From NCBI GenBank assembly GCA_016788825.1, contig JAEUSD010000001.1, positions 19,391 to 83,390 of the forward strand: a stretch of 64,000 nucleotides of DNA, given 5' to 3'. The notes below the pieces were generated by a model. It saw nothing but the letters and a program-made list of their open reading frames with translations, made no database searches and was not told where the DNA came from. The DNA is from Candidatus Doudnabacteria bacterium. Lineage in GTDB: Bacteria > Patescibacteriota > Dojkabacteria > J137 > JAEUSD01. The position numbers and the translations under genes were made by a program. Below, in pieces: positions 8,129 through 50,153 of the stretch. The first letter of the stretch is position 1. Each line of letters opens with the position of its first letter.

Positions 8129-8144
8129 TTTTTATAAAAAACTC

Positions 8145-24314: not shown

Positions 24315-24335
24315 TGGAGCTCGCAAAGCTTCCGC

Positions 24336-27009: not shown

Positions 27010-29676
27010 TTACTCCAGTATCATTCCCTTCACAATCCCTCCCCACTCTACAAGCGTGAACCCTATGCGTTCAGGAGCCTGATAATCGCTTCCCCATTGC
27101 ACCATATCTGGTAATGAGCTTACAGGAATTGGATTCAGCAAAACCCTAATTGCTGTTTCAGGTGTGGGTGAAACAGCTAACGGGATCACTTTATCGATAG
27201 ACTGGGCATCAAAGAATTGCATCACGTAGAAAGGCGCTTCTTCGAGTTGCGGCAACCAATACTGCATAAAATCTGCACTCTCTGTTGCATTTAACCCCAA
27301 CCGATTAAGAGTTTGTGTTAAGTAATTACTCATATCTTGTTTCGCAACGACTTGTTGTATCACAGGGCTGGTCGGTAATGGTGCGTTAGCCTCCCAGAAT
27401 AGGTATCTATGCTTTTTCTGAGTCATCAAGTCCATAAGAGTGCCATTTGGATTTGCCAAGACATTCCAAACACCACTGTACTTAGGCTCAACTCTTACAA
27501 TATCAAGGTCTCTAGGCAAACTAACACTAACTTCTGTAGGAGTTGTCGGATAAAGGTAGATCACAGGCTCCGCATAGCATGTTGGTGATACCATATCTTC
27601 TCGAAATACTGCACGCCAAATTCCTAATGTGTCTTTCCATAACAAGACTGGTTCATACTCTAAGTAAGTCTCATAATCAACCGCCGCAACTGATTTGGTC
27701 ACTATCTTTCTATTATCATAGAAAATCTTAAATAAAGGCCATGATTTGTCGGTCACTATATATATTTCATCCCCTTGGTCCGTTGTGGCAGCTAATTGAA
27801 CCCCAGATCCCAAATCCAATTCAGCCTGTTTAAGCTCTTCGGAAATATCTAGTAAAAGCTTACTGTTAGGTGTAACGGCGCCATTCAACCCCATTCCCTG
27901 TGTATTCAAAAAGTTACACCCAATAGGATCTCCTATGTATTGAATGGTATTGGTATTGAAGAGTTGATAGCCAGCATCTGCAACATCTGGAAAATCTTCT
28001 AACACCTTTGAAGCAGTCCAAACAAGGTCCCTTGATGTGTAGGAATAATAAGCCTCTTTTGCCGTATCTTCATAGTAAACGAATGGCTGATTGAAACCAG
28101 ATTTTCCTAATTCACTTCTAAGTCCTGCGACAGTTCTAATTGAAACCTTTGAATCAACAGCATCCACCACCGAAAGTTTTGAACTTTTAGGATCTCGGTT
28201 TGAATAAAACTGAGATCCTGACCCTAAAGTATCTAGCAAGTACAATTCAGCCAAAGATTCACTTGTAAATAATTCTCTTCCTACCGTGCTGTTTACAATA
28301 AGCTCTTTCCCCTTATAGTCAATTTCTCGGTTATTAATTGAATCAACGATATCCAGATCCAAAGCGGCATCAAAAGTAATTCCAACTTCGGGCATTGATT
28401 TAACCTCACTAATAAAGCTATCTGGAGCTGTATAAGACAATATCCGAGGTTCCTGTCGTAGAATGTTCACGTTATCGTAATCCCTACCCAAAACATACTT
28501 GTTATCTCCTAGATCAATAAACAGTGTTGCAAAAGTAACCCCTAGCTTAATATCGGCCTCAGTTGGAAGACCTTTCACAACATCACCATAGGGCATTTCG
28601 CTACTTAAGGCTAAATAGACATTTTTACCAGGATATATAGTCTTCATTTGACCTACAAGATAGTATTTTGTCGTAGCGGCAAAAGACTTAGTGTATATCT
28701 GATAATCAGGTTTCGTGACTCCGTTAACAGTAATATAACAATCCTGACCTGTTTTACAGTACTCCATCTGGAAAGGGAAGTATTGGTCTATCAAGGTCAT
28801 CAACGTAGGGCCAACCTCTTCTTTGATATCTAAATACCATATGGCTTGATCTGTTTCTATGACGCGGGTTTCGGGCGTAGTAGTTGTACTCTCTGTTGAC
28901 GAGCTTTGTTCCGGAATAATTTCGGTAGAAGTCCCCGTTTTCCCATAGGTCAAGAAGAATAAGATTAAACCTATAACCACGACTGGCAGAGCCAAAAGTG
29001 AAACCTTCGCACCTACCGGAAGAGCCTTAAACTTTGTCGTCATTTTTTGCCACATATTAGTTTGAGGTTGAAAATTAATACTCTGTTGCACCGAACTTAC
29101 TAATGTCGAAGAAGGCACAAACTCTGGTGCGGATACAATTTCAGGAATTGCCAAAAGCAGGAGCGGAATCGTAAGAACACGCATCTTCATTTGTTTCTTG
29201 GCCATCTGTTCAAGTCCACGGTAGTATTTTGCTTTTACGGTGCTTTCGGTGGTTTCCAAAAGCTCAGCAATCTCCGTAAATTTCATATCTTCCCAAATCT
29301 TGAGGATAATGATTTCTTTGGTGACTTCATCCAACTTATTCAGTTCGGACTTCACCTGCTCGAGTAGAGCACCGTCAATTACAGCATTTTCAACAGGAGG
29401 AAAGTCGGAAACAGTCTGTTCTTCATCTTCAAGCGGTTCAATCTGGGGTTTATTACGGAATTTTTTATAAATTAGGTTTCTGGCGGCACCAATTAGCCAT
29501 GCGTGTGGGTTATCAACTTTAGAATAATTTTGCACGAGACTTAAGAAAACTTCGCTGACAATATCTTCAGCATCGGCCTTATTTCCCAACTTGGAAAATG
29601 AGTAGCGGTAGACGTTTGGCAAATATTCTTCGTAAACTTTTGGTATTTGTGAGTGTTGCATACCTAGTAGTACCAT
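27010..29676 (-). CDS. ECF-type sigma-70 factor fused through a TM helix to a ~650-aa extracytoplasmic domain
   Basis: 888 aa. N-terminal sigma region 2 (VYRYSFSKLGNKADAEDIVSEVFLSLV) and region 4 HTH (EIIILKIWEDMKFTEIAELLETTESTVKAKYYRGL). Then a hydrophobic TM segment (RVLTIPLLLLAIPEIV) and a long non-cytoplasmic domain with no recognisable fold. Confidence 0.75.
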   Translation of the reverse strand: MVLLGMQHSQIPKVYEEYLPNVYRYSFSKLGNKADAEDIVSEVFLSLVQNYSKVDNPHAWLIGAARNLIYKKFRNKPQIEPLEDEEQTVSDFPPVENAVIDGALLEQVKSELNKLDEVTKEIIILKIWEDMKFTEIAELLETTESTVKAKYYRGLEQMAKKQMKMRVLTIPLLLLAIPEIVSAPEFVPSSTLVSSVQQSINFQPQTNMWQKMTTKFKALPVGAKVSLLALPVVVIGLILFFLTYGKTGTSTEIIPEQSSSTESTTTTPETRVIETDQAIWYLDIKEEVGPTLMTLIDQYFPFQMEYCKTGQDCYITVNGVTKPDYQIYTKSFAATTKYYLVGQMKTIYPGKNVYLALSSEMPYGDVVKGLPTEADIKLGVTFATLFIDLGDNKYVLGRDYDNVNILRQEPRILSYTAPDSFISEVKSMPEVGITFDAALDLDIVDSINNREIDYKGKELIVNSTVGRELFTSESLAELYLLDTLGSGSQFYSNRDPKSSKLSVVDAVDSKVSIRTVAGLRSELGKSGFNQPFVYYEDTAKEAYYSYTSRDLVWTASKVLEDFPDVADAGYQLFNTNTIQYIGDPIGCNFLNTQGMGLNGAVTPNSKLLLDISEELKQAELDLGSGVQLAATTDQGDEIYIVTDKSWPLFKIFYDNRKIVTKSVAAVDYETYLEYEPVLLWKDTLGIWRAVFREDMVSPTCYAEPVIYLYPTTPTEVSVSLPRDLDIVRVEPKYSGVWNVLANPNGTLMDLMTQKKHRYLFWEANAPLPTSPVIQQVVAKQDMSNYLTQTLNRLGLNATESADFMQYWLPQLEEAPFYVMQFFDAQSIDKVIPLAVSPTPETAIRVLLNPIPVSSLPDMVQWGSDYQAPERIGFTLVEWGGIVKGMILE

Positions 29677-29718
29677 TCTGACGGAAAAAGTTGCAGAATT
29701 GTAGTGGTAAAATCACGC

Positions 29719-30552
29719 ATGCCAGAGCTACCTGAGGTAGAAACCACAATTCGTTACTTGCGACCAGCCTTGCTGGGTGAGGTGATACGCGATTTGACTG
29801 CGTCAAATCGCGGGGAAAGTCACTTCAATATTCCTTTCTCAGAAGTTCAAGAGCGGATTATTGGGACAAAAACCGCAGCGCTGAATCGATTAGGAAAATG
29901 GATGCTGTTTGAGTTCTTAAACCCGGAAGAGAATTCTGAACTAAAGGCAGTCGGTCATTTGCGAATGTCTGGAAGGTACAAAATCGCCGACGAGGTGATA
30001 AAGCATCCGCATAACCGCTTTCAAATACATTTAGAGAATGGGCGAATCATCAACTACATTGACCAACGTAGGTTTGGGACATTTCATTTTGTAGAAGATT
30101 TTAAGAACCACAAAGCCTTAGCAGCGCTGGGGCCAGATATTTTGGCTGCCGATTTCACAGCAGAACAATTGTATGAAGGACTACGAAAAACGAAGAAACC
30201 CCTCTACTCTGCGTTGCTCGACCAAAGCATTGTGGCCGGCCTGGGAAATATCTATGTAAATGAGACGCTACATGCGGCCGGCCTGCATCCTCTTATGCCG
30301 GGCCTCGCTATTACTCCCACCCAAGCTGAAAGACTCCTCCGCGAGGCCCGCCGTATCCTCACCCTGGCTCTCGAAATGAAGGGAACTACTCTGATCGACA
30401 ACCTCTATCAAGACCCCGAAGGCAAGACCGGTCAGTTCGCGAAAATGCTTCAGGTATATGGGAAAAAGTCCGATCCCGATGTTGAAGTACTAAAGATTGG
30501 TGGACGCTCCGTATTTGTGCACAGAAACACGAAGCCAACTTTTTCCCACTAG
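29719..30552 (+). CDS. formamidopyrimidine-DNA glycosylase / endonuclease VIII family (Fpg/Nei), zincless-finger variant
   Basis: The ORF at 29704..30552 has its true start at MPELPEVE (N-terminal Pro nucleophile, Glu3). An H2TH region is present. The C-terminal segment VYGKKSDPDVEVLKIGGRSVFVHRNTKP keeps the conserved Arg but has no cysteines where the CxxC...CxxC zinc finger normally lies. Confidence 0.85.
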   Translation: MPELPEVETTIRYLRPALLGEVIRDLTASNRGESHFNIPFSEVQERIIGTKTAALNRLGKWMLFEFLNPEENSELKAVGHLRMSGRYKIADEVIKHPHNRFQIHLENGRIINYIDQRRFGTFHFVEDFKNHKALAALGPDILAADFTAEQLYEGLRKTKKPLYSALLDQSIVAGLGNIYVNETLHAAGLHPLMPGLAITPTQAERLLREARRILTLALEMKGTTLIDNLYQDPEGKTGQFAKMLQVYGKKSDPDVEVLKIGGRSVFVHRNTKPTFSH

Positions 30553-30594
30553 AAGGGTTGTATATTTGGTATATAGCTGATATACTGGGTATAT

Positions 30595-30948
30595 ATGAAA
30601 GATGTAATAGCCTTAGTTCCTGAGGATGTCTCACAAAGCATAGAGTTACTCTTTAAAAGGATGCGAGCTGATAGTCAGTTCAAGAACTGGACCGACCATG
30701 AAATAGAGTTGTTTTGGACTAATCAATTAGAATGTGTCCACAGTCAGTTTGAAAGTTGGGGTATCATTAGTGCAAGTGATCTCGTAGTCAGGCTACTTTG
30801 GCTACTCAAACATAACCGAAGGTTATTTGAATCTACCCTCTCCTACCACATGACAGGTGGGCATGGACCACTAATGATCACTCATCCTGCCGGATATCCA
30901 ATAGCACTAGCGTCTTTCCTAAAATCTATCTCAGGAGTTGAATCATAA
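30595..30948 (+). CDS. hypothetical protein
   Basis: 117 aa ORF, convergent with tsaD. No recognisable domain. Confidence 0.4.
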   Translation: MKDVIALVPEDVSQSIELLFKRMRADSQFKNWTDHEIELFWTNQLECVHSQFESWGIISASDLVVRLLWLLKHNRRLFESTLSYHMTGGHGPLMITHPAGYPIALASFLKSISGVES

Positions 30949-32154
30949 ATCCCACCCTGGCATTCTATCCATTTGCTCAAAATCGTTGAGGTTGTAGAGT
31001 TTGGCGATGTTTTCGGAGATTTTTCCTTGCTCTTCAAGTTGCCTTAACGCTACTGTGGCTGCAAGGCCGATCATGCCGGCGTTGTCGGTGAGGAGGGCGC
31101 GATCTGGCGCGATGTGGAATCTTACTTGGGACTTTGTGGCAAATTCCGCGATCAGATCGCGCAGACGAGGGCTAGCAGCTACACCACCACCTAGCAGTAG
31201 TTCTTGAGCAGGAAACTGTTTCAAAGCGGCTTCTAGCTTCAAAACTAGGGTTCTCAGTGCGGCTTCCTCAAACATTACGCACAGCTCCCCAATTTGTTCT
31301 TCAGTCAACTTCTCTGCTCTACCCGTTTGCTTGATATCTAACTTGTGACTAACACCGCTTAGTTCATTGATCAGCTGCTTCGCCGCAGTTTTCAGGCCCG
31401 AATAGCTCATGTTTAAATCACCAGAGTTCGCCATAGGGATCGGCAACTGGTACTTCAGTTCTTCGTCCCCGGCGGCGTAACCTTTTACAAACAAAGTCTG
31501 CTGATCCCGTTCCAACCTAATATCTAGCTGACTGCGGGACTGCCCTGCAAGCTTGGAAATCTGCGGTCCGCCGGGATATTCTAGGCCAAGCATCGTGGCA
31601 AATTTATCGAAGGCTTCACCACAAGCATCATCCAACGTTTGGCCAACCTTGCGAATCGAATACAGATCTTCCAGAACCAATATCTCAGTATGCCCACCAG
31701 AAACCAGTAGTCCTAAAGCAGGAAATTCCCAATCTGCGTTTTTGAGATCCAAGGCCGAATACAAGTGGCCGGCCATATGGTTCACACCCAAAAGTGGCAG
31801 CTTGTATTCGGCCGCCAACTCCTTCGCTTTGCGAATCCCCACTTCCAGCGCAATCGCCAAACCTGGCCCTTGAGTAACCGCGATGTGCGTAACTTGATTT
31901 AGTGCGACATTCGCAACTTCCAAAGCTTCTTTTAGAACTTCGTTAATTTTATTCTCATGCGCCACACGTGCGATGCTAGGAACTACTCCACCATAAGCTT
32001 TGTGCAAATCTAGCTGTGAAAACACAACATTGGAAAGAATCTCACCATCACGTACCACCGCCACAGAGGTTTCGTCGCACGAAGTTTCAATTGCAAGAAT
32101 CAGTTTATTCATTCCACCCCCTACTCTCTTCAACTGCAATATGCCTTTTGCCAT
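30943..32154 (-). CDS. tsaD: tRNA N6-adenosine threonylcarbamoyltransferase TsaD (Kae1/YgjD family)
   Basis: Motifs ILAIETSCDETSVAV, the metal-binding HMAGH..H (GVNHMAGHLYSAL), and C-terminal GGVAAS. The likely true start is the internal MNKLILAIETS (about 32112), which would overlap tsaE by 8 bp. Confidence 0.9.
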   Translation of the reverse strand: MAKGILQLKRVGGGMNKLILAIETSCDETSVAVVRDGEILSNVVFSQLDLHKAYGGVVPSIARVAHENKINEVLKEALEVANVALNQVTHIAVTQGPGLAIALEVGIRKAKELAAEYKLPLLGVNHMAGHLYSALDLKNADWEFPALGLLVSGGHTEILVLEDLYSIRKVGQTLDDACGEAFDKFATMLGLEYPGGPQISKLAGQSRSQLDIRLERDQQTLFVKGYAAGDEELKYQLPIPMANSGDLNMSYSGLKTAAKQLINELSGVSHKLDIKQTGRAEKLTEEQIGELCVMFEEAALRTLVLKLEAALKQFPAQELLLGGGVAASPRLRDLIAEFATKSQVRFHIAPDRALLTDNAGMIGLAATVALRQLEEQGKISENIAKLYNLNDFEQMDRMPGWDL

Positions 32155-32581
32155 CAGCCACCTCCGTTATTTTTACATCAATCTTCACCAGCTTTGGCAA
32201 ATTGACCAAATCTTTAGATAACAAACCGCCCCACTCCATCACAATAATATTCCCATGTCGAATATATTTCTCTAAACCAATATCCCGTAGATCTTGCTCT
32301 GTTTTTAACCGCCAAGCATCTACATGAACAAAGTTTCCCACCCTTTCGTTGTATTTAAACGAATACTCGCGAATATATACGTAGCTCGGGGAAACGATCT
32401 CATTTAACACCCCGGCGCCTTTGGCAGCCCCCTTCACAAAATGAGTCTTCCCGGCGCCGTAGTCACCAGTCAGCAAGACCACGAAACAATTCTCTGCTCC
32501 ATACAGCTGCAGCCATTTTTGCATCAATTTTTCTGCCAAAGCCATCGTGGCTGCAGCAGAAGTAGTTTCAAACAAACTCAT
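32105..32581 (-). CDS. tsaE: tRNA threonylcarbamoyladenosine biosynthesis ATPase TsaE (YjeE)
   Basis: 158 aa. Walker A GDYGAGKTHFVKG. Typical TsaE size and operon position upstream of tsaD. Confidence 0.85.
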   Translation of the reverse strand: MSLFETTSAAATMALAEKLMQKWLQLYGAENCFVVLLTGDYGAGKTHFVKGAAKGAGVLNEIVSPSYVYIREYSFKYNERVGNFVHVDAWRLKTEQDLRDIGLEKYIRHGNIIVMEWGGLLSKDLVNLPKLVKIDVKITEVADGKRHIAVEESRGWNE

Positions 32582-33111
32582 TTCTTAGGTTTAAAAGATT
32601 TAGTCTTAGTTAAAACCACCTCCACCCCACTTGATTCAGCAAGTTCCTGGGCATATTCCTCAATCGGTTCCAGATTTGCCAGCTTTCTATTCTGCTCCAT
32701 CTCTTGCCAATCTTTGACTTTGCGCAGAACCAACTTATCTCCTTGATCCGCAAACTGAGTACCAAATTCTTGTGGTCGACCTTGTCTCACACAAACCCGA
32801 TCAGTCAAATATGCCAACCACGAGACATCAATATCATCTCTGTTCTGGCTAAGAAGCAACAAGTAGCCAAGTTGCTTTGTCACGTCTTCAGTTTGCAAAG
32901 CAATCAAATAAGCATAGTACGCCGCTTCTTCACCCACCTGCGAAATGGTAGGCCAGCCAATTTCAGAAATCACAGCATCCAAGACCAAATTATTTTCTCT
33001 AGCCCGATCAGCCAGGCGCTCACTATCTACTTTCTCATCCTTCCACAGAACCTCTGTTTCTTTTATAGCTTTCACCAAAGCTGATGTGAAGCTGCGCTGC
33101 TTCTTCGACAT
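32578..33111 (-). CDS. hypothetical protein translationally coupled to tsaE
   Basis: 177 aa. Its stop overlaps the tsaE start (ATGA). No TsaB/Kae1 fold motifs and no RimI/YrdC motifs recognised. Confidence 0.55.
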   Translation of the reverse strand: MSKKQRSFTSALVKAIKETEVLWKDEKVDSERLADRARENNLVLDAVISEIGWPTISQVGEEAAYYAYLIALQTEDVTKQLGYLLLLSQNRDDIDVSWLAYLTDRVCVRQGRPQEFGTQFADQGDKLVLRKVKDWQEMEQNRKLANLEPIEEYAQELAESSGVEVVLTKTKSFKPKK

Positions 33112-33201
33112 AAAGGATTATACACCAATCAAAGCGCCCCTTCACCTTCACTACTTGCGTAATCAAGGATTCGGGGCGCCTAACTGCGATATTATTGCAA
33201 A

Positions 33202-33474
33202 TTATGCAACCATCTCGCGGAACTGTTTACCAGCGCGGAAGCGTGGTACGTTCTTAGCTGGAACGCGAACTGGAGCGTTGGTCTTAGGATTGCGTTTCAT
33301 GCTCTCCTTTTGGTGTACAGCACGGAAAGTTCCGAAACCGGTTAGAGTTACAGAATCACCTTTCTTTAAGCTGGACATCACAGCGTCCAATACAGCATCC
33401 AAAACATCTGCTACCATTTTTTTGGTTGCACCTGTCTTGCTAGCTACTGCATTTACTAAATCTTGTTTGTTCAT
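33202..33474 (-). CDS. hup: DNA-binding protein HU
   Basis: 90 aa. MNKQDLVNAVASKTGATKKMVADVLDAVLDAV...GFGTFRAVHQKESMKRNPKTNAPVRVPAKNVPRFRAGKQFRE is the classic HU/IHF fold with the arm motif. Confidence 0.92.
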   Translation of the reverse strand: MNKQDLVNAVASKTGATKKMVADVLDAVLDAVMSSLKKGDSVTLTGFGTFRAVHQKESMKRNPKTNAPVRVPAKNVPRFRAGKQFREMVA

Positions 33475-33818
33475 TTGAGTTTTCCCTCCTTTCTAGTGGA
33501 TTTCCCTATAAAGGGATAGTTATTGCTTTAAATTTCATTACAGTAATACCGTAATGTGACCAAAGTCTATGACGAAGTCGGCGTTATGTCAAATAAACCT
33601 TTGTGAGTAAGGGAATATTTGACAGAGTTCAGAAAAACCTGTAGCACAAAGACTTTGAACCATCCGTAGCACCAGATCAGGTTGAAGAAAACCTTTACCT
33701 ACAAGCCTTATTGCCCACTTAGCATTCAAGTGCTGTCAGAAAATAATTCTCCCCTCCTCTACCCAATGCTGCACAAAGTTCTGGCTGGACTATACTAATA
33801 TCTCTCAGCTAACAAGGT

Positions 33819-33848
33819 TTTCACGTGCAATATATGTTACACGTGAAA
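33819..33848. promoter_or_regulatory. perfect inverted repeat TTTCACGTG-N12-CACGTGAAA (candidate operator) in the hup-def intergenic region
   Basis: 9-bp perfect arms, each containing the palindromic CACGTG, separated by an AT-rich 12-bp spacer. About 60 bp upstream of the def start. Confidence 0.4.
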
Positions 33849-33905
33849 GAATATGATTTGGCTACAAGTACTAATCTTTTTTTCACTAAACAGCTATAAT
33901 ACCTG

Positions 33906-35961: not shown

Positions 35962-36030
35962 GAGTCCATGCTAGCTGGCAATTCTTAAATAATTATTAAC
36001 TCTAGCCAAACTAGTGTATGATTATGCTGT

Positions 36031-36945: not shown

Positions 36946-36946
36946 C

Positions 36947-38092
36947 CTAGTCTCGTTGCAGCGGCATGATAATGTGCAGAAAATCTTTGTCTTTGGAGTC
37001 TTTGAATACTGCTGCGGCCAATGGACCGTTTGTGGCAAAGCTTACCTCGTCCCCTTGAATGTGAGACACCAGCTCGATTAAGAACTGCAAGCTGTACGCC
37101 CCCTTGAAATCGGAGCTGCCAGTAACATCTTTCAGTTTAAGTTGGACTTCGTTTTGCCCCATCTGACTAATGCTGCTGCGCATGGTTAGTGTAGTTGTTT
37201 CTAGGTCTAAGTCCCAATCCACACGATAGCCTTGAGAATTCTTAGCAAAAGTGTAAACCACTTTCAGCGCATGTTCTAAATCGGCTTTGGGAACAGAGAA
37301 GCTTAAGGATTCGTCTGCAGGGATCACTTTTGCATACTCAGCATACGGTCCTTCGATCAATCTCACACTCACTTCGATCTCGCCACAGCGATAAATAATT
37401 TGAGTCTTTGCTTCGTTAACAAAGATTTCACATTCTTCCACATCTTCCGCAGAGAGGATTTTGATAAGCTCTTGTAGTGGACGCGCAGGAACTATCAGTT
37501 TCATTGGCTCTTCCGCACTAGAATCTGTTACCTCAATAGTCTTCAGAGACAAACGATAGCCATCTAAACCGACAAGGGTAACTTCGTTTTCTTTTAGCTC
37601 AGGGTCTATCTCCCACAGCACACCTGTATGTTGGACCTTGCTAGTCACCACATCTGCTGCACAAGCGAAAACTACTTTTGTAAGTGCATCAACCAACAGG
37701 TTTGACTTGACTTTCATCAAAGGTTTTTCGCTAACGCGTGGAAGAATGGGAAATTCTTGCGCGGATATGGTAGCAAACTCTGCCTGAGCCTTATCTGTAA
37801 GCGCTTTCAGCGTATCTCCCTCTTGCTTGAGTACCACATTTCCCTCTCCGGTTGCCGCTACAAAATCTGCAAGCAATTTACCTGACACAGTAAGGCTTCC
37901 TTCACTCTCAACCTGACCAGGTATCCACAAATTTATCCCCATATCTAGATTGGTAGCTGCAAGGTGTAAGTTAGTCTTGTTGACCTCAACTAAAACATTA
38001 GAGAGAACAGGAATATTGGGCTTCACACTCACTGCTCTAGTTACATAGTTTAATGCTTTGCTTAGGCTGTGCTGTGCAAGTTTGATCTCCAT
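36947..38092 (-). CDS. dnaN: DNA polymerase III beta sliding clamp
   Basis: 381 aa. Three-domain clamp pattern. The N-terminus MEIKLAQHSLSKALNYVTRAVSVKPNIPVLSNVLVE is typical, and it sits immediately downstream of dnaA. Confidence 0.92.
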   Translation of the reverse strand: MEIKLAQHSLSKALNYVTRAVSVKPNIPVLSNVLVEVNKTNLHLAATNLDMGINLWIPGQVESEGSLTVSGKLLADFVAATGEGNVVLKQEGDTLKALTDKAQAEFATISAQEFPILPRVSEKPLMKVKSNLLVDALTKVVFACAADVVTSKVQHTGVLWEIDPELKENEVTLVGLDGYRLSLKTIEVTDSSAEEPMKLIVPARPLQELIKILSAEDVEECEIFVNEAKTQIIYRCGEIEVSVRLIEGPYAEYAKVIPADESLSFSVPKADLEHALKVVYTFAKNSQGYRVDWDLDLETTTLTMRSSISQMGQNEVQLKLKDVTGSSDFKGAYSLQFLIELVSHIQGDEVSFATNGPLAAAVFKDSKDKDFLHIIMPLQRD

Positions 38093-38299: not shown

Positions 38300-39676
38300 T
38301 TAATTCTGGATATCTTGTCCCAAAGTCCCAACTATTTGTTGGAGTTGAGCCTTGAAATTACTGTCGGTTAGCAGCATTGACTTCACTTTATCCACAGCAT
38401 GCATCACGGTTGTATGGTCCTGACGGTCGAGTAGAGTAGCGATTTCTTCTAACTTGTAGCCAAGTTCTTCTCTGAGGACATACATGCAGATCTGCCTGGC
38501 CATGGCGACATCCTTTGTGCGGCGTGGCCCCTTGATGTCTTTTATCTTCACATTTAGCGTTTGGGCCACGCACTTGATCACGTCCGGAACTTTGACTTTC
38601 TCACGCTTAGCATAGGAGTCTGTTCCCATGATCCGGGCAACCTCTTCTAGACTAAGATCGCCCTCAGGTTTCATCTGATTGAACAAACTCACCTTTTGCA
38701 AAGCTCCTTCGAGTTCGCGGATGCTCTCGGTTATCTCGCGGGCCATCATTTCCAAGACAGTACGGCTGAGCTGCGCGCCCATGCTGACAGCCTTGCGCTC
38801 CAAGATAGCTAAGCGCAGCTCAAAATCTGGCTTGGTGATATCTACTACCATACCTCCCTGAAAGCGAGTCTTAAGCCGGTCTTCAATATCTTTAATGTCT
38901 TCGGGGCGCCGATCTGCGATCAAGATGACTTGGCTATTGTTGTTGTGTAGCTCGTTGAAGGTGTTGAAGATCTCTCCGCGAGTTGCTTCCCATTTCGAGA
39001 TCTGCTGTACATCATCGATGATGAGAATATCTGCAGAACGATACTTATTTCTAAACTCGCGGTTCTTATTGCTTTTTATGGCCTTCACCATATCGTTCAT
39101 AAAACCTTCGGACGCAGTGTAGACAATCTTTTTGTTCGGCGAACGCTCCAAGATACTGCGTCCGACCGCTTGAGCCAAATGAGTTTTTCCTACCCCGCTG
39201 GGACCAAAGATGTACAGGGGGTTATAAATAGTGCCAGGTGAGCCAATCACTGCAGATGCTGCAGCATGAGCTATTCGGTTGGCATCCCCGATGATGAAAC
39301 TCGACATTGTGTACCGAGGATTAAGTCCGGCGGTTTGCAAAAGGGTATCAATACTTGCGGCAGGCGATTCGCTGCTCAACGGTAGTAGCGGCGTTGAAAG
39401 TTGACTCTGTTGGGTGAGATCTTGCTGAACGATGAATTGTGGCTCTACAGAGTTGCCGTAGACATGGCTAATGGTGTCGGTGATCAGCTTAGTATATTTT
39501 TGTTTCAACCAATCGGATGTGAATGGGTTGGGAACTGCAATGGTTGCCTGCGATTCTCCAATATTAACTAACCTCGCTCCTGAAAAGAAGGTCTTGTATA
39601 TTGCAGGGGAATCGAGTTTGACTTCGATTTGAGCCAGCACTGTTTTCCATAGTAATTGTTGTTCTGCAGCAGGCAT
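38300..39676 (-). CDS. dnaA: chromosomal replication initiator protein DnaA
   Basis: 458 aa. AAA+ Walker A GPSGVGKTHLAQAVG, Walker B ILIIDDVQ, sensor motifs, and C-terminal domain IV with the DnaA signature (KDVAMARQICMYVLREEL). Confidence 0.96.
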   Translation of the reverse strand: MPAAEQQLLWKTVLAQIEVKLDSPAIYKTFFSGARLVNIGESQATIAVPNPFTSDWLKQKYTKLITDTISHVYGNSVEPQFIVQQDLTQQSQLSTPLLPLSSESPAASIDTLLQTAGLNPRYTMSSFIIGDANRIAHAAASAVIGSPGTIYNPLYIFGPSGVGKTHLAQAVGRSILERSPNKKIVYTASEGFMNDMVKAIKSNKNREFRNKYRSADILIIDDVQQISKWEATRGEIFNTFNELHNNNSQVILIADRRPEDIKDIEDRLKTRFQGGMVVDITKPDFELRLAILERKAVSMGAQLSRTVLEMMAREITESIRELEGALQKVSLFNQMKPEGDLSLEEVARIMGTDSYAKREKVKVPDVIKCVAQTLNVKIKDIKGPRRTKDVAMARQICMYVLREELGYKLEEIATLLDRQDHTTVMHAVDKVKSMLLTDSNFKAQLQQIVGTLGQDIQN

Positions 39677-40205: not shown

Positions 40206-40206
40206 T

Positions 40207-41886: not shown

Positions 41887-41889
41887 AAA

Positions 41890-43346: not shown

Positions 43347-43349
43347 TCT

Positions 43350-43976
43350 ATGCCAAGGGGAAGTATAAGTGCCAGAATAAATAAAATTCTTGAGACGAAG
43401 CAAGGTCAGGCTTATGCTGTGGCGGCCGGAACGGCCGCCGTGGTTATAGTGTTGATTGGGTTTGGCATTTTTCCTATCTTGAGCTCAATATTCTTCGTAA
43501 GTGAACAGAATGCGATCAAGCAGCAAGTCTTGGATAGCATGACTGTGAAGGAGCAGAATCTGCGAGGTCTTGTCAGCAAAGAGTTTAATAATCGGGCAGT
43601 AACGTTGGCTCTAAAAGCTGCTATGCCTGATCAATTGGAGCAGGCCGTCCTAATTGAGAAAGTTACAAATTTGGCAGCGTTAACTGGCTTGCAAATAAAC
43701 TTAATGAGCTTCACCGAACTGGAAACAAAAATTGAGTTGCGTGAGACTTTTGATGTAAGTGCAAACCTTCAAGGTAAAAGTTTTTCAATGAGTGCCTACG
43801 GAAGTCGATCTGGGATAGAAGGATTTGTGACTGGTGTCGAGTCGATGCATCGAGTGGTGAATATCCAAACTCTCACAGTGGGAAGAAGGGATGATGAAGA
43901 CTTGCAGCAGGGGGGGCAACTGGGCAAAGAATACAAACTAGATCTGCAGGGTGAGATATATTTTATAGCGAAATAA
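43350..43976 (+). CDS. PilO-like type IV pilus assembly protein (tentative)
   Basis: 208 aa. Single N-terminal TM (AVAAGTAAVVIVLIGFGIFPIL), then a coiled-coil segment followed by an alpha/beta domain. Adjacent to the PilN-like gene with a 3-bp gap. Confidence 0.45.
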   Translation: MPRGSISARINKILETKQGQAYAVAAGTAAVVIVLIGFGIFPILSSIFFVSEQNAIKQQVLDSMTVKEQNLRGLVSKEFNNRAVTLALKAAMPDQLEQAVLIEKVTNLAALTGLQINLMSFTELETKIELRETFDVSANLQGKSFSMSAYGSRSGIEGFVTGVESMHRVVNIQTLTVGRRDDEDLQQGGQLGKEYKLDLQGEIYFIAK

Positions 43977-43977
43977 G

Positions 43978-44217
43978 ATGGATAAAACATGGATTAGACT
44001 GATACTTTTGGCGATAGTGATCATGGTAGTAGTGATAGGATGGGATATATTCTTGACTGTTTCAGGTGCGAAAAATACCAAAGAGTACAATGTGATAGAT
44101 ATCAGCCCCAATTTGTATGGGCTTACCGAGCAGCATTTGAGGAATGATCCTGAGTTTTTTAAGTTTGAACAAGGGGTATCTACAACGACTACGACCAGTA
44201 CTGCTGGTGCGAATTAA
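43978..44217 (+). CDS. small membrane-anchored protein (possibly PilP-like component)
   Basis: 79 aa, N-terminal TM, Thr-rich tail. Coupled to the PilO-like gene (1-bp gap). Confidence 0.35.
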   Translation: MDKTWIRLILLAIVIMVVVIGWDIFLTVSGAKNTKEYNVIDISPNLYGLTEQHLRNDPEFFKFEQGVSTTTTTSTAGAN

Positions 44218-46472
44218 CTCTGGAGGTTCTCTTCATTACTCCCACCGCCTTTCTTGCGTGATAAAAACTCATCTGCATCCGTGATGAGCACATCTCTGGT
44301 TTTGCTACCGACTGCTGGTCCGACGATTCCCATCTCTTCCATTTCTTCGAGCAGTCGGGCCGCACGGTTAAATCCTATGTTTAGTTTTCTTTGTAGGAAC
44401 GACGACGATCCTTTTTGGTAGTTGACTACGATGCGTACAGCCTGAATAAAGAGATCGTCGTCTGACATACCTTCTGCCTCGCCTGGGGCAAGTTGGTTAC
44501 CAGTTTCGCTCTCCAGCACTGCTGTGACGTACTCAACTTCTGGTGCTTGTGCTTTGATGAAATCAACTACACGGATTACTTCTTCTTGAGCTACATATCC
44601 TCCTTGTAGACGAGTGGCTTTGGTTTTGTCCGGGGCTTTGAACAGAAGGTCTCCCTTTCCCATCAAACTTTCAGCCCCAATATCATCGATGATTACCCGA
44701 GAATCAACCCCGCTAGTCACACTCATTCCGATACGGGCGGGGATGTTGGCTTTGATCAGCCCTGTGATAACGTTTACCGAAGGTCTCTGAGTAGCTAGTA
44801 CTAAGTGGATTCCAACTGCGCGGGCTTTTTGGGCCAATCGCACAATTGCAGTTTCTGCTTCGACGCGATTGGCCGTCATCATCATATCTGCCATTTCATC
44901 GATTACGATTACGATGTATGGCATTGCGGCAAACCCCATCTTTTGGTTGTAGCCCTCAATATTTCTGACTTGAGATTTGTTTAGTACAGTGTAGCGGCGT
45001 TCCATTTCGTTTACTGACCACTTGAGTGCATTCACAACTTTTTCCATGTCAGTGATGACGGGAGTAAGTAGGTGCGGAATATCGTTATAGTCGGATAATT
45101 CAACCTGTTTCGGGTCAACAAGGATCAGTTTTACCTCGTCAGGAGTTTTGCTCATCAATAGAGTAACGATGAAACTGTTTGTAAGGATAGATTTTCCTGA
45201 TCCTGTAGCTCCGGCGATCAGTAAATGAGGCATCTTCTGGATGTCTGCTACCACTGGCTTTCCATTGATATCTTTTCCGACAACTGCTGGAAGGTTAGCC
45301 TTGCCAGACTGCATTTCTTGTGACTCAATTAATTCCCTGATCTTCACCTCATCTCGTTTGCCACGAGGCACTTCAATTCCGAGGTAGGTTGTCCCTGGGA
45401 TAGTTTCGATACGGACAGCTTGAGAGTCAACTCCAAGGGCCAAAGCGATATTGGGACTGAGAGTTACGACTTTGGAAACTTTTACTCCTAGAGGGATATC
45501 TAAAGCATACTGTACAACTGAAGGGCCAATGTAAGCGTCCATCACTTTGGCATCGATATCAAAGCTGTTGAGAGTTTGTTCAATAATTTTGGCATTGCGC
45601 TCTTTGTCTGCATCGCTTGGCTTCGTTTTCTTGAAAGGTGCGAGTAAACTAGATGGCGGCAGTTGCCAGTTTGGATATTTCAACTCTTCGAAGGAGAGAC
45701 CGGACTCTGGCACTGCCGCCTCTTTTATCTGCGGCTGCTCCCCAGTGTGTTTGTTTGGCTGGATTCGTTGAATTTGAGGCGTCGCAGCCGCCACCTCGGT
45801 TTGTTTTATTGCTGTCTCAATAGGTGTTTCTTGTTTACTTCTTTGAAAGTCGCTGAAGCGTAGTTTCCCATTAGGGGTCTGTTGTTCCAACTTTTCTGCT
45901 TCTTCGTCTACTTCTTGGCCACGGTACTCAAAAAACCAGTTAACAATGCGAGAAATAAACGCAAAGACTGCTTTTATTCTTTCTACGGTTTCGCTTAGAG
46001 AGAGCGAAAGGGCAATCGGGGTAAAAATGGCAATCAGCGCTCCCAATACCAATGGGGTGTATTGGGCAAATACGAGTGAATCGGCAAACAAGTCATAAGC
46101 AAGGAAATAACCTATGAACCCGCCTGCTTGTCCGCTATCGCGGAGCAAAATTGCTGCGGTCTTCGTGGATGCTAAAGATGATACAAAAGCCGGGATCAGC
46201 AAGCAAAGGATAAACTGCGCAGCTAAACTGCCAGTATTTGCTAATGGCCATGTAGCACCCAGTAGACGGGCACCAAGGTTTAAAAGAAATATTCCACTCA
46301 CGAAAGTTGTCTGGCCAAATAGGCCCTTTGCTTGGGTGAAAAAGTTTGCTTCGGTGGTGTTTACGAAGAGTCCGATAATCAAAACTGCTGCCATCAAAAT
46401 ACACAAAAGGCCCAACACAGTAGATGTTTCGCGGCTATCGTAAGTAATTTGTTTTTTGCGACGTCGACCCAT
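44214..46472 (-). CDS. ftsK: DNA translocase FtsK
   Basis: 752 aa. N-terminal polytopic membrane domain, linker, motor domain with Walker A GATGSGKS and Walker B, and a C-terminal gamma winged-helix domain. Confidence 0.9.
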   Translation of the reverse strand: MGRRRKKQITYDSRETSTVLGLLCILMAAVLIIGLFVNTTEANFFTQAKGLFGQTTFVSGIFLLNLGARLLGATWPLANTGSLAAQFILCLLIPAFVSSLASTKTAAILLRDSGQAGGFIGYFLAYDLFADSLVFAQYTPLVLGALIAIFTPIALSLSLSETVERIKAVFAFISRIVNWFFEYRGQEVDEEAEKLEQQTPNGKLRFSDFQRSKQETPIETAIKQTEVAAATPQIQRIQPNKHTGEQPQIKEAAVPESGLSFEELKYPNWQLPPSSLLAPFKKTKPSDADKERNAKIIEQTLNSFDIDAKVMDAYIGPSVVQYALDIPLGVKVSKVVTLSPNIALALGVDSQAVRIETIPGTTYLGIEVPRGKRDEVKIRELIESQEMQSGKANLPAVVGKDINGKPVVADIQKMPHLLIAGATGSGKSILTNSFIVTLLMSKTPDEVKLILVDPKQVELSDYNDIPHLLTPVITDMEKVVNALKWSVNEMERRYTVLNKSQVRNIEGYNQKMGFAAMPYIVIVIDEMADMMMTANRVEAETAIVRLAQKARAVGIHLVLATQRPSVNVITGLIKANIPARIGMSVTSGVDSRVIIDDIGAESLMGKGDLLFKAPDKTKATRLQGGYVAQEEVIRVVDFIKAQAPEVEYVTAVLESETGNQLAPGEAEGMSDDDLFIQAVRIVVNYQKGSSSFLQRKLNIGFNRAARLLEEMEEMGIVGPAVGSKTRDVLITDADEFLSRKKGGGSNEENLQS

Positions 46473-46542
46473 GCTTATTAGCTTATCAGTATAGTATAAC
46501 AGGCTAGTGGGTCCTTTCCGAGAGGTGCTAAACTAATTTTGT

Positions 46543-47319
46543 ATGCAAGTTCTAGACAAAGATACTAAGTTCGCTCACTTGGGAAAACCAGGAGGAGCGT
46601 TTACACCAGGATTTCGTAGGCGATTAAACAAGTTGATGAGCGTTTTGGACTTGCGGGATAAAAAAATACTAGATGTTGGTTGTGGGGAGGGGGTGTGGTT
46701 GGCGGAATTTGCCAAACTCACGGCGCCCGAAAACGTATTTGGTTCTGAGTATGATAGTGAGTTGGTAGCTGAGATTGTCCGGCATGGCTCAGATGCACTT
46801 GTAGATTCACACATTCCATTGACCAATATCGTAAACTGCCCAGCAGAGGCTTTGCAGTTTGCGGATAATACTTTTGATATTGTGTTCTCGCACGAAGTGC
46901 TGGAGCATGTTCAGGATGATGCGAAAGCAGTTTCCGAGGCGATTCGGGTTTTGAGGCCTGGGGGGTACTTTGTGGTCTTCACCCCGAATCGCGGCTGGCC
47001 ATTTGAACAACATGGAATGTTCTGGTGGGGCAAATATTACTGGGGGAACATTCCTTTGTTGCCATGGTTCCCATGGCTTTACCGCATATTTGCCCCGCAT
47101 GTTCGCAATTACTGGTGGTGGGATATTCGTAGACTGATGACTTCGGTTCCAGGTGTGCAAATCTACAAGCATGATTTTGTATTTCCGGCTTTTGATCGTT
47201 TGAAATATAAGTGGGGTGGGGTTGGAAAACTCATCCAGCAAACTTTCTATGCGCTTGAACACACTCCCTTAAGAGTCTTCGGGATAAGCCATTTAATAAT
47301 CGTCCAAAAGCCTACTTAG
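46543..47319 (+). CDS. class I SAM-dependent methyltransferase
   Basis: 258 aa. Motif I ILDVGCGEGVW, motif post-I, and VLRPGGYFVV. Trp-rich C-terminal extension. Confidence 0.8.
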   Translation: MQVLDKDTKFAHLGKPGGAFTPGFRRRLNKLMSVLDLRDKKILDVGCGEGVWLAEFAKLTAPENVFGSEYDSELVAEIVRHGSDALVDSHIPLTNIVNCPAEALQFADNTFDIVFSHEVLEHVQDDAKAVSEAIRVLRPGGYFVVFTPNRGWPFEQHGMFWWGKYYWGNIPLLPWFPWLYRIFAPHVRNYWWWDIRRLMTSVPGVQIYKHDFVFPAFDRLKYKWGGVGKLIQQTFYALEHTPLRVFGISHLIIVQKPT

Positions 47320-47351
47320 CAAACTAGGTTGGTGTCTGCTAAAATTATCTG

Positions 47352-48416
47352 ATGCAACGAGATTACTACGAAGTCTTAGGAGTAAGTAAATCTGCTTCCA
47401 AAGATGAAATTAAAAAGTCATACCGCAAACTTGCGAAAGAACTACATCCAGATCGAAATAAGGCCGCTGATGCAGAGGCAAAATTCAAAGAGGTTCAACA
47501 GGCTTATGATGTGTTGTCGGACCCGCAGAAGCGAGATGCCTATGATAAGTATGGCTTTGCAGGGTCGCAGGCTTTCAACGGTGGTGGGGGTATGGGTGGT
47601 TTTGCGGCTGATGTAGGAGATCTAGGTGATTTGTTTGGTTCATTCTTTGGCGGAAACTTTGGAGGCTTCGATTTTGGCGGTGGTATGCGTAGTGGAAGTC
47701 GTCGTGGGGCGGATATTGAGGCTACCCTGCAAGTTGAATTCAATGAAGGGGTGTTTGGTGCTGAGAAGAATATCTCTTACAAAAGAAAAGTGAAGTGCGA
47801 CTTGTGCGCAGGTTCTGGTGCCAAAGATGGGAAAAAACAGACCTGTCACGAGTGTGGGGGGCGAGGTCAAGTGGCACGTACTCAACAGACAATATTTGGA
47901 ACGATGCAAACGATAACTACTTGTCCGACATGTGGGGGAACTGGCCAAGAGATCGTGGATAAATGTACGAAGTGTAAAGGTGAGGGAAGAGTAGACCACA
48001 ATGAAGACTTTAAACTCAAAATTCCGGCCGGCATCCCGGATGGGGTGACTCTACGTTTTGCTGGGCAGGGGCATGCCGGCCAGCATGGTGGCGCTCCTGG
48101 CGATTTATACATCACTATCGAAGTTGCTGCTCATCCGCGCCTGGAGCGCCGCGGCAATGACATCTACCTAGATCAAGAGATTGACGTAGTTACGGCCACT
48201 CTAGGCGGTGAGGTTGAGATTCCTACCGTGCATGGGCAAGTCACAATGAAGATTCCGGAGGGGACTCAGCCAGGTAAGGTGCTTCGTTTGAGCGGCAAAG
48301 CCGGTCCGAAATTCAAAGGCCATGGGAATGGCGACCAGTACGTGCGAATTCAAGTAAAAATCCCCGAGAAACTTAGCCGTGATGAGCGCGCGAAGTGGGA
48401 GCAGCTGCGTGGATAA
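47352..48416 (+). CDS. dnaJ: molecular chaperone DnaJ
   Basis: 354 aa. J-domain with HPD (LHPDRN), a Gly/Phe-rich linker, four CxxCxGxG zinc-finger repeats and a C-terminal substrate-binding domain. Confidence 0.93.
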
Positions 48417-48464
48417 CCGCATATTTTCTGCAACTTTATTCCTTTTTCTGCCATACTATTAGGT

Positions 48465-50153
48465 ATGGAAAGTAACTATTCGGCTTTAGTGACTGAGCTC
48501 TATCGTTATGCTTTGTTTAAGCTTAGAAATAAAGAAAAAGCAGATGAAGCAGTGCAAGAGGTATTTGTCCGCTTACTAGCCTCTGATAAGCGTAATCTAA
48601 AGGATTTAGAGCTAAAACGTTGGTGCATAGGGATTTTGCGCAATGTTATTCTTGAAAGTTATAAGGAGGTAACAAACAGCCTCATGTATGAGGAAATAGA
48701 TACGACAGATCTTGAGGGCGAAACTATCTCAAGTGAATTACTGAAATCCGTATGGGTATGTCTAAACAACCTTGACGAAGAGAGTCGTGAAATAGTGACT
48801 TTAAAGGTATGGGATGAGCTCAAATTTGAAGAGATAGCTGAAGTTTTAGCGATGAACGCAAACACGATAAAGGCAAAATATTACCGAGCAATTGAAGATC
48901 TTAAAGCCATGCTAAACAAAGAACCTGACAGGAAAACGTATGCTGTGTCTTTACCTTTGTTACTTATGTTGCTTGCAAAGCTGAAAGACTCCAAGTTATT
49001 GCTACCGAATAGCACTTTATTTAAAGCATTAAATATTAATAACCACAGTATGGCTAAATTCTCTATTACTACCTTATCGCCTAAGACTATTGTAATTTAT
49101 GCTACTGTTCTGGCAACAGTGATTGTCGCGTCGGCAGCAATTGTTGTCAGCCTTGCTAATCAAGAGCGGTTCCCAAATCCGCAGATTCCCGTAGCTCCAT
49201 CAGTTAGTACCTCAGTTTCCACAACGACTAGTTCAACAATAACCCCCGAACAAGAAGATGTTGAAGTTATAAGTATGGATGATAAATGGAATATATATCG
49301 TTTTAACAAACTAGGTTTTTCAATTAGGATTCCCAAATACACAAACTACTTTTACGGCGGATGTGAGTATAAATCGAATGAGCCTCGACCGGGGAGCAGT
49401 TATCGACCAGTTACCACACTCACACCGGTTAGTTACTTTGTAGAGGGAAATAAGGTGTACTTCTTTCCAGAGTACGGGTACAAGTTAGGTGGACAAACAG
49501 ATACAGATATAGGCAATGGCGCACAGATAAGTAACTATAGCTCGTGTGATAGGGTAACTTTTACAAAAGATGAGGTGATGACCGAGATCTTTATGCTGTC
49601 TAGTTGGGTAATGTTATTCGAAGTGAACGAGGATGATGGACAGGTAATTTATGCCCCGATTGGTCAGGCATATACATTCTTTGATGGTGATAATGTAGGG
49701 CTGGATCAAGAAATCCATGATTCCATCGTGGTCCATACGGGTGAGTTTAAAGAGTGTAAGAATGGTAGTCTTTTGCTCACGATGACTATTCCAGGAGACT
49801 GGTCGTGTAACTCGACTGCAGGAGAGGTTGGAAAAGGGAATATGAGTACCAATCACAATGGATTTACGTTTGATAACCCTGAATTACCTTGGATTTGGAT
49901 TACTAGCCAAGGTCGTGGCCCAAACTGTATGCTCTGTACTTCTGGCACAGTATTTTTTGAAAACCCAGTATTGAAGGTGGTTAATTTTGAAGAAGAGGGG
50001 AAGGTAAAGGATATTATAGGGACCCTAAAAAGCTGGCCAGTAGCGGGAATATCTATTTCGATTAGGTTTCAAAATTCAACTGAGCCAACGTTGAAGCAAA
50101 AGGTACAGCTAGTAGAGGTGCTAAACAGTATCACGGGTGTTACGCTTGATTAA
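48465..50153 (+). CDS. ECF-type sigma-70 factor fused via TM segment(s) to a ~330-aa Cys-containing extracytoplasmic domain (paralogue of 27010..29676)
   Basis: 562 aa. Region 2 (LYRYALFKLRNKEKADEAVQEVFVRLL) and region 4 (EIVTLKVWDELKFEEIAEVLAMNANTIKAKYYRAI). Then hydrophobic segments (VSLPLLLMLLA; IVIYATVLATVIVASAAIVVSLA) and an extracytoplasmic domain with several Cys. Confidence 0.72.
   Translation: MESNYSALVTELYRYALFKLRNKEKADEAVQEVFVRLLASDKRNLKDLELKRWCIGILRNVILESYKEVTNSLMYEEIDTTDLEGETISSELLKSVWVCLNNLDEESREIVTLKVWDELKFEEIAEVLAMNANTIKAKYYRAIEDLKAMLNKEPDRKTYAVSLPLLLMLLAKLKDSKLLLPNSTLFKALNINNHSMAKFSITTLSPKTIVIYATVLATVIVASAAIVVSLANQERFPNPQIPVAPSVSTSVSTTTSSTITPEQEDVEVISMDDKWNIYRFNKLGFSIRIPKYTNYFYGGCEYKSNEPRPGSSYRPVTTLTPVSYFVEGNKVYFFPEYGYKLGGQTDTDIGNGAQISNYSSCDRVTFTKDEVMTEIFMLSSWVMLFEVNEDDGQVIYAPIGQAYTFFDGDNVGLDQEIHDSIVVHTGEFKECKNGSLLLTMTIPGDWSCNSTAGEVGKGNMSTNHNGFTFDNPELPWIWITSQGRGPNCMLCTSGTVFFENPVLKVVNFEEEGKVKDIIGTLKSWPVAGISISIRFQNSTEPTLKQKVQLVEVLNSITGVTLD

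Follow-up and report, generated by a model that had tools for sequence, protein, structure and literature searches.

INTRODUCTION

Membrane-tethered sigma fusions are already known, namely IutY and the ECF48, ECF52 and ECF53 groups of extracytoplasmic function (ECF) sigma factors, SCO4117 among them (PMC8999054, PMC5411451, PMC5826349). IutY from Pseudomonas putida, a FecI-FecR hybrid of group ECF243, was shown experimentally to be activated by sequential Prc and RseP proteolysis (PMC5411451, PMC8999054). The Streptomyces coelicolor ECF52 protein SCO4117 consists of sigma, ZAS, transmembrane (TM), Pro-rich and CBM segments, in that order; proteolytic release has been proposed for this protein, and its positive autoregulation has been observed (PMC5826349, PMC8999054). 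Here we describe two genes, designated P1 and P2, in a 64,000-nucleotide (nt) stretch of DNA from a Candidatus Doudnabacteria bacterium (contig JAEUSD010000001.1, positions 19,391 to 83,390), which is referred to below as the window. Each gene encodes an N-terminal ECF sigma factor followed by a linker, a TM helix, a stalk and a large ectodomain. With moderate confidence, we propose that P1 and P2 represent a hitherto undescribed family of trans-membrane signal transducers made of one polypeptide, so far seen in the candidate phyla radiation (CPR), in which a tethered sigma factor would be released by proteolysis and activate its own gene, and in which ectodomain cassettes would be swapped between members.

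The closest counterparts of this layout are the ECF52, ECF53 and ECF48 proteins, in which an ECF sigma factor is followed by one or two C-terminal TM segments, a low-complexity linker on the outside and an outside (carbohydrate-binding) domain. However, the latter proteins carry a ZAS domain (PF13490) between sigma-4 and the TM segment, whereas the CPR family is without the ZAS motif and contains a helix with the signature hPLLhLA instead. In addition, the outside linker of the ECF52, ECF53 and ECF48 proteins is Pro-rich whereas the stalk of the CPR family is S/T-rich, and those groups were reported to be exclusive to Actinobacteria, while the present family occurs in CPR organisms with many unrelated ectodomains. 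P1 and P2 also resemble IutY in being single polypeptides with an N-terminal ECF sigma factor, one TM segment and a domain on the far side of the membrane, which is periplasmic in IutY. IutY depends on its FecR domain and on a TonB-dependent outer-membrane receptor, whereas P1 and P2 gave no FecR hit. No TonB-dependent receptor gene was found beside P1 or P2 among their neighbours in the window. To our knowledge, Patescibacteria are without an outer membrane.

Two other systems share features with the CPR family. In the RsgI/SigI paralogues of Clostridium thermocellum, a sigma-binding module and a single TM segment are combined with varied extracellular sensors. This is likewise one chassis with many ectodomains, but sigma and anti-sigma are separate proteins and SigI is not an ECF sigma factor of this type; moreover, Pfam searches showed that the RsgI_N domain of RsgI is absent from the CPR family. 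ToxR and CadC combine a cytoplasmic DNA-directed domain, a single TM segment and a periplasmic sensor in one polypeptide, but these proteins are winged-helix activators of the OmpR type and function in the anchored state, whereas the cytoplasmic part of P1 and P2 is a sigma factor, which joins core RNA polymerase (RNAP).

Although the architecture itself is known, the family is set apart by its conserved helix, its unusually diverse and apparently recombining ectodomains and its CPR origin, and the helix, the apparent cassette exchange at a syntenic locus and the candidate promoter open several questions to direct testing. In the 2021 ECF reclassification (PMC7826278) we found neither Patescibacteria nor Parcubacteria nor 'candidate phyla' named, and no paper linking ECF fusions with Patescibacteria was found in our literature search. 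A literature search on ECF01-Gob/WD40 found nothing usable.

RESULTS AND DISCUSSION

P1 and P2 begin with complete ECF sigma domains

P1 is an 888-aa open reading frame (ORF) on the minus strand (27010..29676) containing a 610-aa ectodomain, and P2 is a 562-aa ORF on the plus strand (48465..50153) with an ectodomain of ~300 aa; both were found where a preliminary description of the window had placed them. These were the only copies of the sigma fusion recovered from the window when all six frames were searched with a family profile using hmmsearch.

The sigma-2 and sigma-4 domains of P1 (aa 15-75 and 106-158; 29203..29634, minus strand) scored 45.3 bits with Sigma70_r2 (PF04542, cut-off 24) and 42.4 bits with Sigma70_r4_2 (PF08281, cut-off 25.7). 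Those of P2 (aa 6-67 and 96-147; 48480..48905, plus strand) yielded 27.1 and 42 bits, the latter for a match over aa 96-145, which is also above the cut-offs, and the AlphaFold2 (AF2) model of this region had pLDDT values of 70-95. Both Pfam domains exceeded the gathering score in eight relatives as well. P1 and P2 also passed the NCBIfam model for ECF sigma factors (TIGR02937 sigma70-ECF) with 74.6 and 56.7 bits, respectively, versus a cut-off of 42.9. No NCBIfam subfamily or equivalog model came near its cut-off for either protein, an example being Sig70_bacteroi1 at 79.8 versus 126.4 bits. Only sigma-2 and sigma-4 are present, without sigma-3 or sigma-1.1, which is the domain content of ECF (group 4) sigma factors. 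The best sequence matches in the PDB were the ECF sigma factors SigW, SigE and SigL, with SigW (5wuq) being closest to P1. Alignment of the N-terminal regions revealed ECF motifs that were kept across the family (AEDxxSExF, WLxxxARN, REIhxLKxWE and EIAExL..sEsTVKxKYYRG). These results agree with the preliminary description in assigning a complete ECF-type sigma domain to the N-terminus of both proteins.

The sigma domains of P1 and P2 are 37-38% identical (E = 6e-23), and no similarity between their C-terminal parts was detectable by sequence comparison, as expected from the earlier view that the two outer domains are unrelated. P1 and P2 had also been called paralogous. This term holds in a distant sense only, as P1 is nearer to proteins from other genomes (60% identity to P0017) than it is to P2 (37%). 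Since the P1-P2 pair ranks among the most distant in the family, the sequence comparisons identify P1 and P2 as old paralogues rather than recent duplicates.

The fusions are present in independent assemblies

An orthologue of P1 that is 95% identical and likewise 888 aa long (P0001) was found in an independent Logan assembly. P2 matched an NCBI protein with 100% identity, annotated as 'MAG: RNA polymerase sigma factor [Candidatus Doudnabacteria bacterium]' (MAG, metagenome-assembled genome), which places the source organism in the CPR. Another member, P0078, was seen on 24 contigs, and 35 blocks of the collection index it. As the independent assemblies carry the same fusions in continuous frames, we conclude that they are not assembly artefacts, a concern that the preliminary description had itself raised. 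The sigma codons of P1 and P0001 differ by 23 synonymous and 7 non-synonymous changes. Because synonymous differences outnumber non-synonymous ones, this codon comparison places the sigma part of P1 and P0001 under purifying selection.

An interrupted version of the same layout was seen on two metagenome contigs, L100 (3111-4586) and L101. In both, one in-frame TAA sits precisely at the boundary of linker and TM helix, such that the upstream ORF specifies sigma plus linker (232 aa) and the frame resumes as TM helix, stalk and ectodomain. The stop codon could mean that the gene has decayed into a pseudogene, has split naturally or is recoded.

These interrupted copies, and the existence of the P1 ectodomain as a stand-alone protein (see below), are what one would cite in favour of artefact or decay, i.e. 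that frameshifts or mis-assembly joined separate frames, or that a surface protein has retained the sigma domain as a non-functional relic. We consider this explanation extremely improbable in view of the continuous frames in many independent assemblies, the conserved and fusion-specific linker, the purifying selection on sigma and the stand-alone homologue P0019, which has no adjacent sigma gene.

A conserved helix separates sigma-4 from a single TM helix

Sigma-4 and the TM helix are connected by a juxtamembrane module of ~60 aa. It begins, after a basic stretch, with a conserved hydrophobic helix of consensus K/R-x-Y/R-A-h-S-h-P-L-L-h-L-A-h, in which the Pro is invariant and the Leu residues are near-invariant. 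In P1, alignments and hydropathy place this family signature at aa 166-183 (RVLTIPLLLLAIPEIVSA; 29128..29181, minus strand). The corresponding segment of P2 lies at aa 159-173 (YAVSLPLLLMLLAKL; 48939..48983, plus strand), where AF2 predicted a helix from 163 to 175. The hPLLhLA helix is followed by a second short helix and by ~35 less conserved residues in all, with a near-invariant Met just before the membrane. An AF2 model of full-length P2, built from a shallow alignment, contained two short linker helices, the first at pLDDT ~70-79.

Hydropathy analysis identified a single strongly hydrophobic stretch of 19-22 residues per protein, peaking at aa 225-243 in P1 and at aa 209-227 in P2. The TM helix of P1 spans aa 225-244 (28945..29004, minus strand) with a Kyte-Doolittle (KD) value of 2.76, and is oriented N-in/C-out with four K/R residues before it and one after it. 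That of P2 spans aa 206-228 (49080..49148, plus strand; KD 2.54), and the AF2 helix extends from 206 to 231. Across the family, the TM helix is preceded by Lys and followed by a stalk rich in S/T (S/T/N/Q/P-rich). The preliminary description had allowed for one or two TM segments. One strong TM helix was found in each protein; the second hydrophobic stretch is the conserved family helix, which is too weak or too short to span the membrane, with no more than 13-18 apolar residues between charges and a score below KD 1.3 in P2. The length and hydropathy of the hPLLhLA stretch, the Cys parity and the existence of N-anchored ectodomain homologues led us to reject it as a second TM helix. Two spans would also leave the C-terminal domain in the cytoplasm, contrary to the other evidence on topology, which argues for a single span.

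Summed over 16 family members, the 15-residue stretch ahead of the TM helix contains 36 K/R and one D/E, versus 16 K/R in the 15 residues after it. Furthermore, Cys counts are even (0, 2, 4, 6 or 8) in each of the 16 ectodomains. From the K/R asymmetry, the S/T/N-rich stalk, the even Cys counts and the N-anchored or secreted homologues, sequence features that all agree, we conclude that the fusions are type II (N-in/C-out) proteins with their C-terminal domains outside the cell, in keeping with the non-cytoplasmic location anticipated earlier.

The hPLLhLA helix co-occurs with the membrane-bound architecture. In a metagenome scan, all six complete ORFs in which the match ran through the helix were TM-ectodomain fusions, while matches that stopped within sigma-4 belonged to short ORFs of ordinary ECF size. 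Searches for a known anti-sigma element were negative: the N-terminal 300 aa of every member tested were free of the HxxxCxxC (ZAS) motif, and the linker matched none of the Pfam anti-sigma families (zf-HC2, FecR, RskA or RsgI_N), zf-HC2 being absent even at E<=5.

Strong conservation of the helix, equal to that of the sigma core motifs, together with its co-occurrence with the TM helix and ectodomain and the two short helices predicted by AF2, would fit a conformational switch in cis. According to this idea, the hPLLhLA helix and the helix after it dock on the core-binding surfaces of sigma-2 and sigma-4 in the manner of the class II anti-sigma factor CnrY, and ligand binding relieves the inhibition without proteolysis. 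However, a single-pass helix is a poor signal transmitter unless the protein oligomerizes, and the linker has no sequence similarity to any anti-sigma family. We therefore view such a non-proteolytic switch as quite unlikely.

P1 and P2 carry unrelated ectodomains

The S/T-rich stalk (aa 245-275) and ectodomain (aa 276-888) of P1 occupy 27013..28944 (minus strand). In a phmmer search, aa 225-882 of P1 were 30-35% identical to 559-679-aa proteins without a sigma domain (P0014-P0021 and P0024; E = 1e-68 to 1e-85). Among the matches listed, these stand-alone homologues mostly consist of a short N-terminal tail and a single hydrophobic anchor before the shared region; a minority are without an N-terminal anchor, and some of these appear truncated. 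A total of 615 representatives of 50% clusters matched full-length P1 at E<1e-30, and nearly all of the best 150 did so through the C-terminal domain (aa 625-882; 27031..27804, minus strand), a widespread uncharacterized extracytoplasmic domain. Among the matches listed, the last ~250 aa of P1 recur at the C-terminal end of many proteins, the majority being N-anchored or secreted, and most of the listed relatives of this domain (P0014-P0162) are N-anchored proteins of ~550-600 aa.

Stand-alone homologues were also considered as split anti-sigma partners. This possibility was rejected, as the neighbourhood of P0019 contains no sigma gene and the N-terminal tails of the homologues show no relation to the linker of the fusions.

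AF2 modelling of the P1 ectodomain from a 61-sequence alignment gave a pLDDT of 85.9 and a pTM of 0.84. No match was found in Pfam or NCBIfam, or by fold in the PDB, and the model identifies the P1 ectodomain family as large, structured and uncharacterized. One structural match of the model was a Terrestrivirus protein. Many invariant aromatic and acidic residues, together with a dockerin domain on one relative (P0002, found by word-index search), weakly hint at a glycan-related role of this family. The Cys307/Cys313 pair of P1 is kept in three stand-alone homologues (P0014, P0015 and P0024), and Cys587 and Cys700 align with the conserved GCG and AECGKP of the A2 consensus.

P2 has an S/T-rich stalk and ectodomain at 49149..50150 (plus strand), ending in a 138-aa subdomain with 4 Cys (49737-50150) that also occurs in P0141 and P0130. 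'Cys-rich', as this domain had been called, overstates a modest content of 6 Cys in ~330 aa; four of the six form a C-x13-W-x-C...C-x(2-8)-C pattern that is kept in P0141 and P0130. The AF2 model of this ectodomain, from a shallow alignment, was poor (pLDDT <50 over most of its length).

The family carries many ectodomains on one chassis

The family census was taken from the best 150 phmmer matches and the genome scan from the 80 best loci, and the counts given here are accordingly lower bounds. Exhaustive phmmer searches were needed; word-indexed searches with both ectodomains and with the P1 N-terminus yielded almost nothing, and the latter query missed even the P1 orthologue. At least 16 distinct proteins share the sigma-linker-TM chassis. 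The window pair and eight 50%-cluster representatives (430-648 aa) from the exhaustive search make up ten members, a further member from Candidatus Saccharibacteria was the sole fusion among the 80 best genome loci (the other 79 were ordinary ECF sigma factors), and five more came from the metagenome scan. Doudnabacteria and Saccharibacteria are the named sources; the remaining members are from metagenome contigs.

Across the 16 proteins, at least nine ectodomain types without mutual similarity were distinguished, including those of P0017 and P0022, which have weak similarity to TolB propellers. P0017 is the closest sigma relative of P1 (60% identity) among the matches listed and its gene lies at the same TsaE-TsaD-x-Fpg-x locus, yet its TolB-like ectodomain is unrelated to that of P1. 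At a TsaE-TsaD-Fpg locus syntenic with P1, contig L090 contains two fusion genes in tandem (5737-9034), which encode P0022 and P0130 (627 and 430 aa). With at least 16 members, including this tandem pair, the earlier proposal that the architecture is expanded in the lineage is supported.

Nucleotide comparison of P1 with its orthologue P0001 (window 27010-29833 versus L001 1-2824) revealed an uneven pattern. The upstream flank was 96-99% identical and most windows of the ectodomain were 97-99% identical, with one window at 92%, whereas identity dropped to 81-94% over the sigma-linker-TM region. The pair forms a mosaic such as recombination breaking near the stalk would be expected to leave. 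Taken with the cassette diversity, this pattern suggests a diversification of the family by gene duplication and recombination, the latter of which would swap ectodomain cassettes onto the sigma-linker-TM chassis. The interval from the fusion gene to serS on contig L001 also contains two genes that are missing from the window, one for an ABC-ATPase and the other encoding 368 aa.

A promoter-like motif precedes the fusion genes

A shared motif lies directly upstream of both window genes. It reads TCTGCAACTTT-N14-TACTACTAGGT followed directly by the ATG of P1 Met6 (29659..29697, minus strand), and TCTGCAACTTT-N16-TACTATTAGGT followed directly by the P2 ATG (48427..48467, plus strand), and represents a candidate autoregulated ECF-type promoter giving rise to a leaderless mRNA. 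The downstream half is TACTA(C/T)TAGGT in the two genes; the motif is coding in the long ORF of P1 and non-coding for P2. Because the first five codons of the P1 ORF share sequence with a motif whose counterpart before P2 is non-coding, and consistent with the N-termini of other family members, translation of P1 probably starts at Met6 (ATG 29661-29659), which would give a protein of 883 aa.

The family motif can be written TGYAAC-N17-19-TAnnAnTAGGT, or T(G/C)YAACT(T/A)T-N14-17-YAnnAnTAGGT, and precedes P1, P2 and the fusion genes of contigs L001 (139-171), L006 (82-115) and L092 (9941-9977). Near-variants were found on L004/5, L008, L010 and L090, in the last case before both genes. A regular expression for the motif matched three times in the window versus 0.17 expected, the third match being antisense inside a glycosyltransferase gene, and a stricter pattern matched twice versus 0 expected. 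The GYAAC of the -35 part is of ECF type. Since the motif lies ~22 nt before the ATG in L092 and ~60 nt before it in L006, this variable distance argues for a promoter rather than a translation signal. A -10-like hexamer that ends 5 nt before the ATG in most members leads us to predict leaderless mRNAs. We interpret the motif as a sign of positive autoregulation of the family genes, a frequent trait of ECF sigma factors that has been discussed for SCO4117 (PMC5826349).

Proteolytic release is the favoured mode of activation

An ECF sigma factor, a single TM helix and an extracytoplasmic domain in one chain constitute the one-polypeptide trans-membrane arrangement that the preliminary description had envisaged as a transcription switch. 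Its further suggestions, regulated intramembrane proteolysis and the sensing of host or surface signals by the ectodomains, are inferences. In the mechanism that we propose, the tethered sigma factor, possibly also masked by the hPLLhLA helix as a built-in anti-sigma element, would be unable to form productive holoenzyme. A signal at the ectodomain would lead to removal of the ectodomain, after which the type II TM helix would be cut within the membrane by a site-2-type protease. Released sigma would then transcribe its own gene, among other targets, from the TGYAAC-N17-19-TAnnAnTAGGT promoter, resulting in positive autoregulation from a leaderless mRNA. S2P/RseP cleaves type II membrane proteins (PMC9401612). 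The family has the type II single-pass orientation that is typical of S2P substrates, and this match, together with the precedents of IutY and ECF48/52/53, is the reason that we favour release.

Several observations weigh against this mechanism. No S2P/M50 gene was found in the window or in the family contexts examined, and no protease was linked to the fusion genes. The absence of a recognizable anti-sigma domain makes inhibition by the linker a conjecture. In the window, the motif precedes P1 and P2 only, and a regulon is thus not visible. Moreover, the motif could be a variant of a housekeeping promoter, because its -10 part resembles a TATAAT-like box.

The preliminary description had pointed to a rhomboid protease gene (52467-53207) as a possible source of the releasing activity, in which case the rhomboid would cut the TM helix and free sigma. 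The gene is a genuine family member (PF01694, 119 bits) situated 2.3 kb from P2, and one type II protein, Star, was reported as a rhomboid substrate (PMC2941825). However, a cupin gene and an opposite-strand 448-aa gene separate it from P2, and no rhomboid gene was found near P1 or in five other family contexts examined. The orientation also speaks against this protease, as substrates of rhomboids are mostly type I/III proteins, the class to which searches for bacterial rhomboid substrates are limited (PMC2941825), while the fusions belong to type II. We thus regard rhomboid cleavage as very unlikely.

The failure to find a linked protease in the window or family contexts would be expected if sigma were never released. 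In such a model, the anchored protein recruits RNAP and promoter DNA at the membrane, as in ToxR and CadC, and the ectodomain acts allosterically or through oligomerization. The flexible ~60-aa spacer between sigma-4 and the TM helix, the lack of a canonical anti-sigma domain and the constant proximity of the nucleoid to the membrane in ultra-small CPR cells are compatible with this model. On the other hand, the invariant hydrophobic helix beside sigma-4 suggests masking rather than free activity, the characterized fusion IutY requires cleavage, and no precedent of a membrane-anchored sigma factor at work is known to us or was found in reviews (PMC8999054). In our judgement, permanent anchoring of an active sigma factor is unlikely, and release by proteolysis is the reading that we retain.

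Genomic setting and implications

The replication origin is inside the window, as indicated by dnaA (38300-39676, minus strand), dnaN (36947-38092, minus strand) and a cumulative GC-skew minimum at ~36-38 kb. The P1 and P2 genes flank the origin, with ~9 kb on each side. The neighbourhood consists of housekeeping genes, including rpoB, infB, dnaG, serS, argS, tsaD/E, fpg, ftsK, dnaJ and adk.

CPR signal transduction is almost uncharted. As far as we know, CPR genomes are small and encode few regulators. The family would add to the ECF classification a group from a phylum-level radiation, and it offers testable handles in the form of a candidate cognate promoter, a juxtamembrane element that may represent a new mode of ECF silencing and natural domain-swap variants that mark the joints between modules. 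A by-product is a large, confidently foldable ectodomain family without a Pfam model or a solved structural relative. A more far-reaching interpretation, which we consider rather unlikely, is that hPLLhLA defines a new minimal class of built-in anti-sigma element and that the family is a principal means of extracytoplasmic sensing in CPR/Patescibacteria. Its cassettes would then recombine at an origin-proximal hotspot, retuning strain by strain what an episymbiont senses, e.g. host surface or glycans. Alternatively, within the same interpretation, the family would comprise tethered-active sigma factors, which would be unprecedented.

Other genes in the neighbourhood

A 448-aa soluble ORF (51078-52424, minus strand) without a Pfam match lies between the P2 neighbourhood and the rhomboid gene. 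Proteins of the envelope-stress type, namely PspC-domain and LiaF-like membrane proteins, are encoded a few kb downstream of P2 (55682-57060). Two LiaF-like genes were also found 5-7 kb from P0078 on contig L092 (17030-18757), which may be a coincidence. The region 23652-25304 of the window encodes a 220-aa protein in which Pfam identified a C-terminal OmpR-type Trans_reg_C domain only, with no receiver hit. This gene adjoins one for a RodZ-like HTH_25 protein with one TM segment, and the pair is kept beside serS in L001. Finally, a complete non-homologous end joining pair is present in this small CPR genome, in which a full LigD (phosphoesterase, ligase and primase-polymerase; 836 aa) adjoins Ku (57155-60443).

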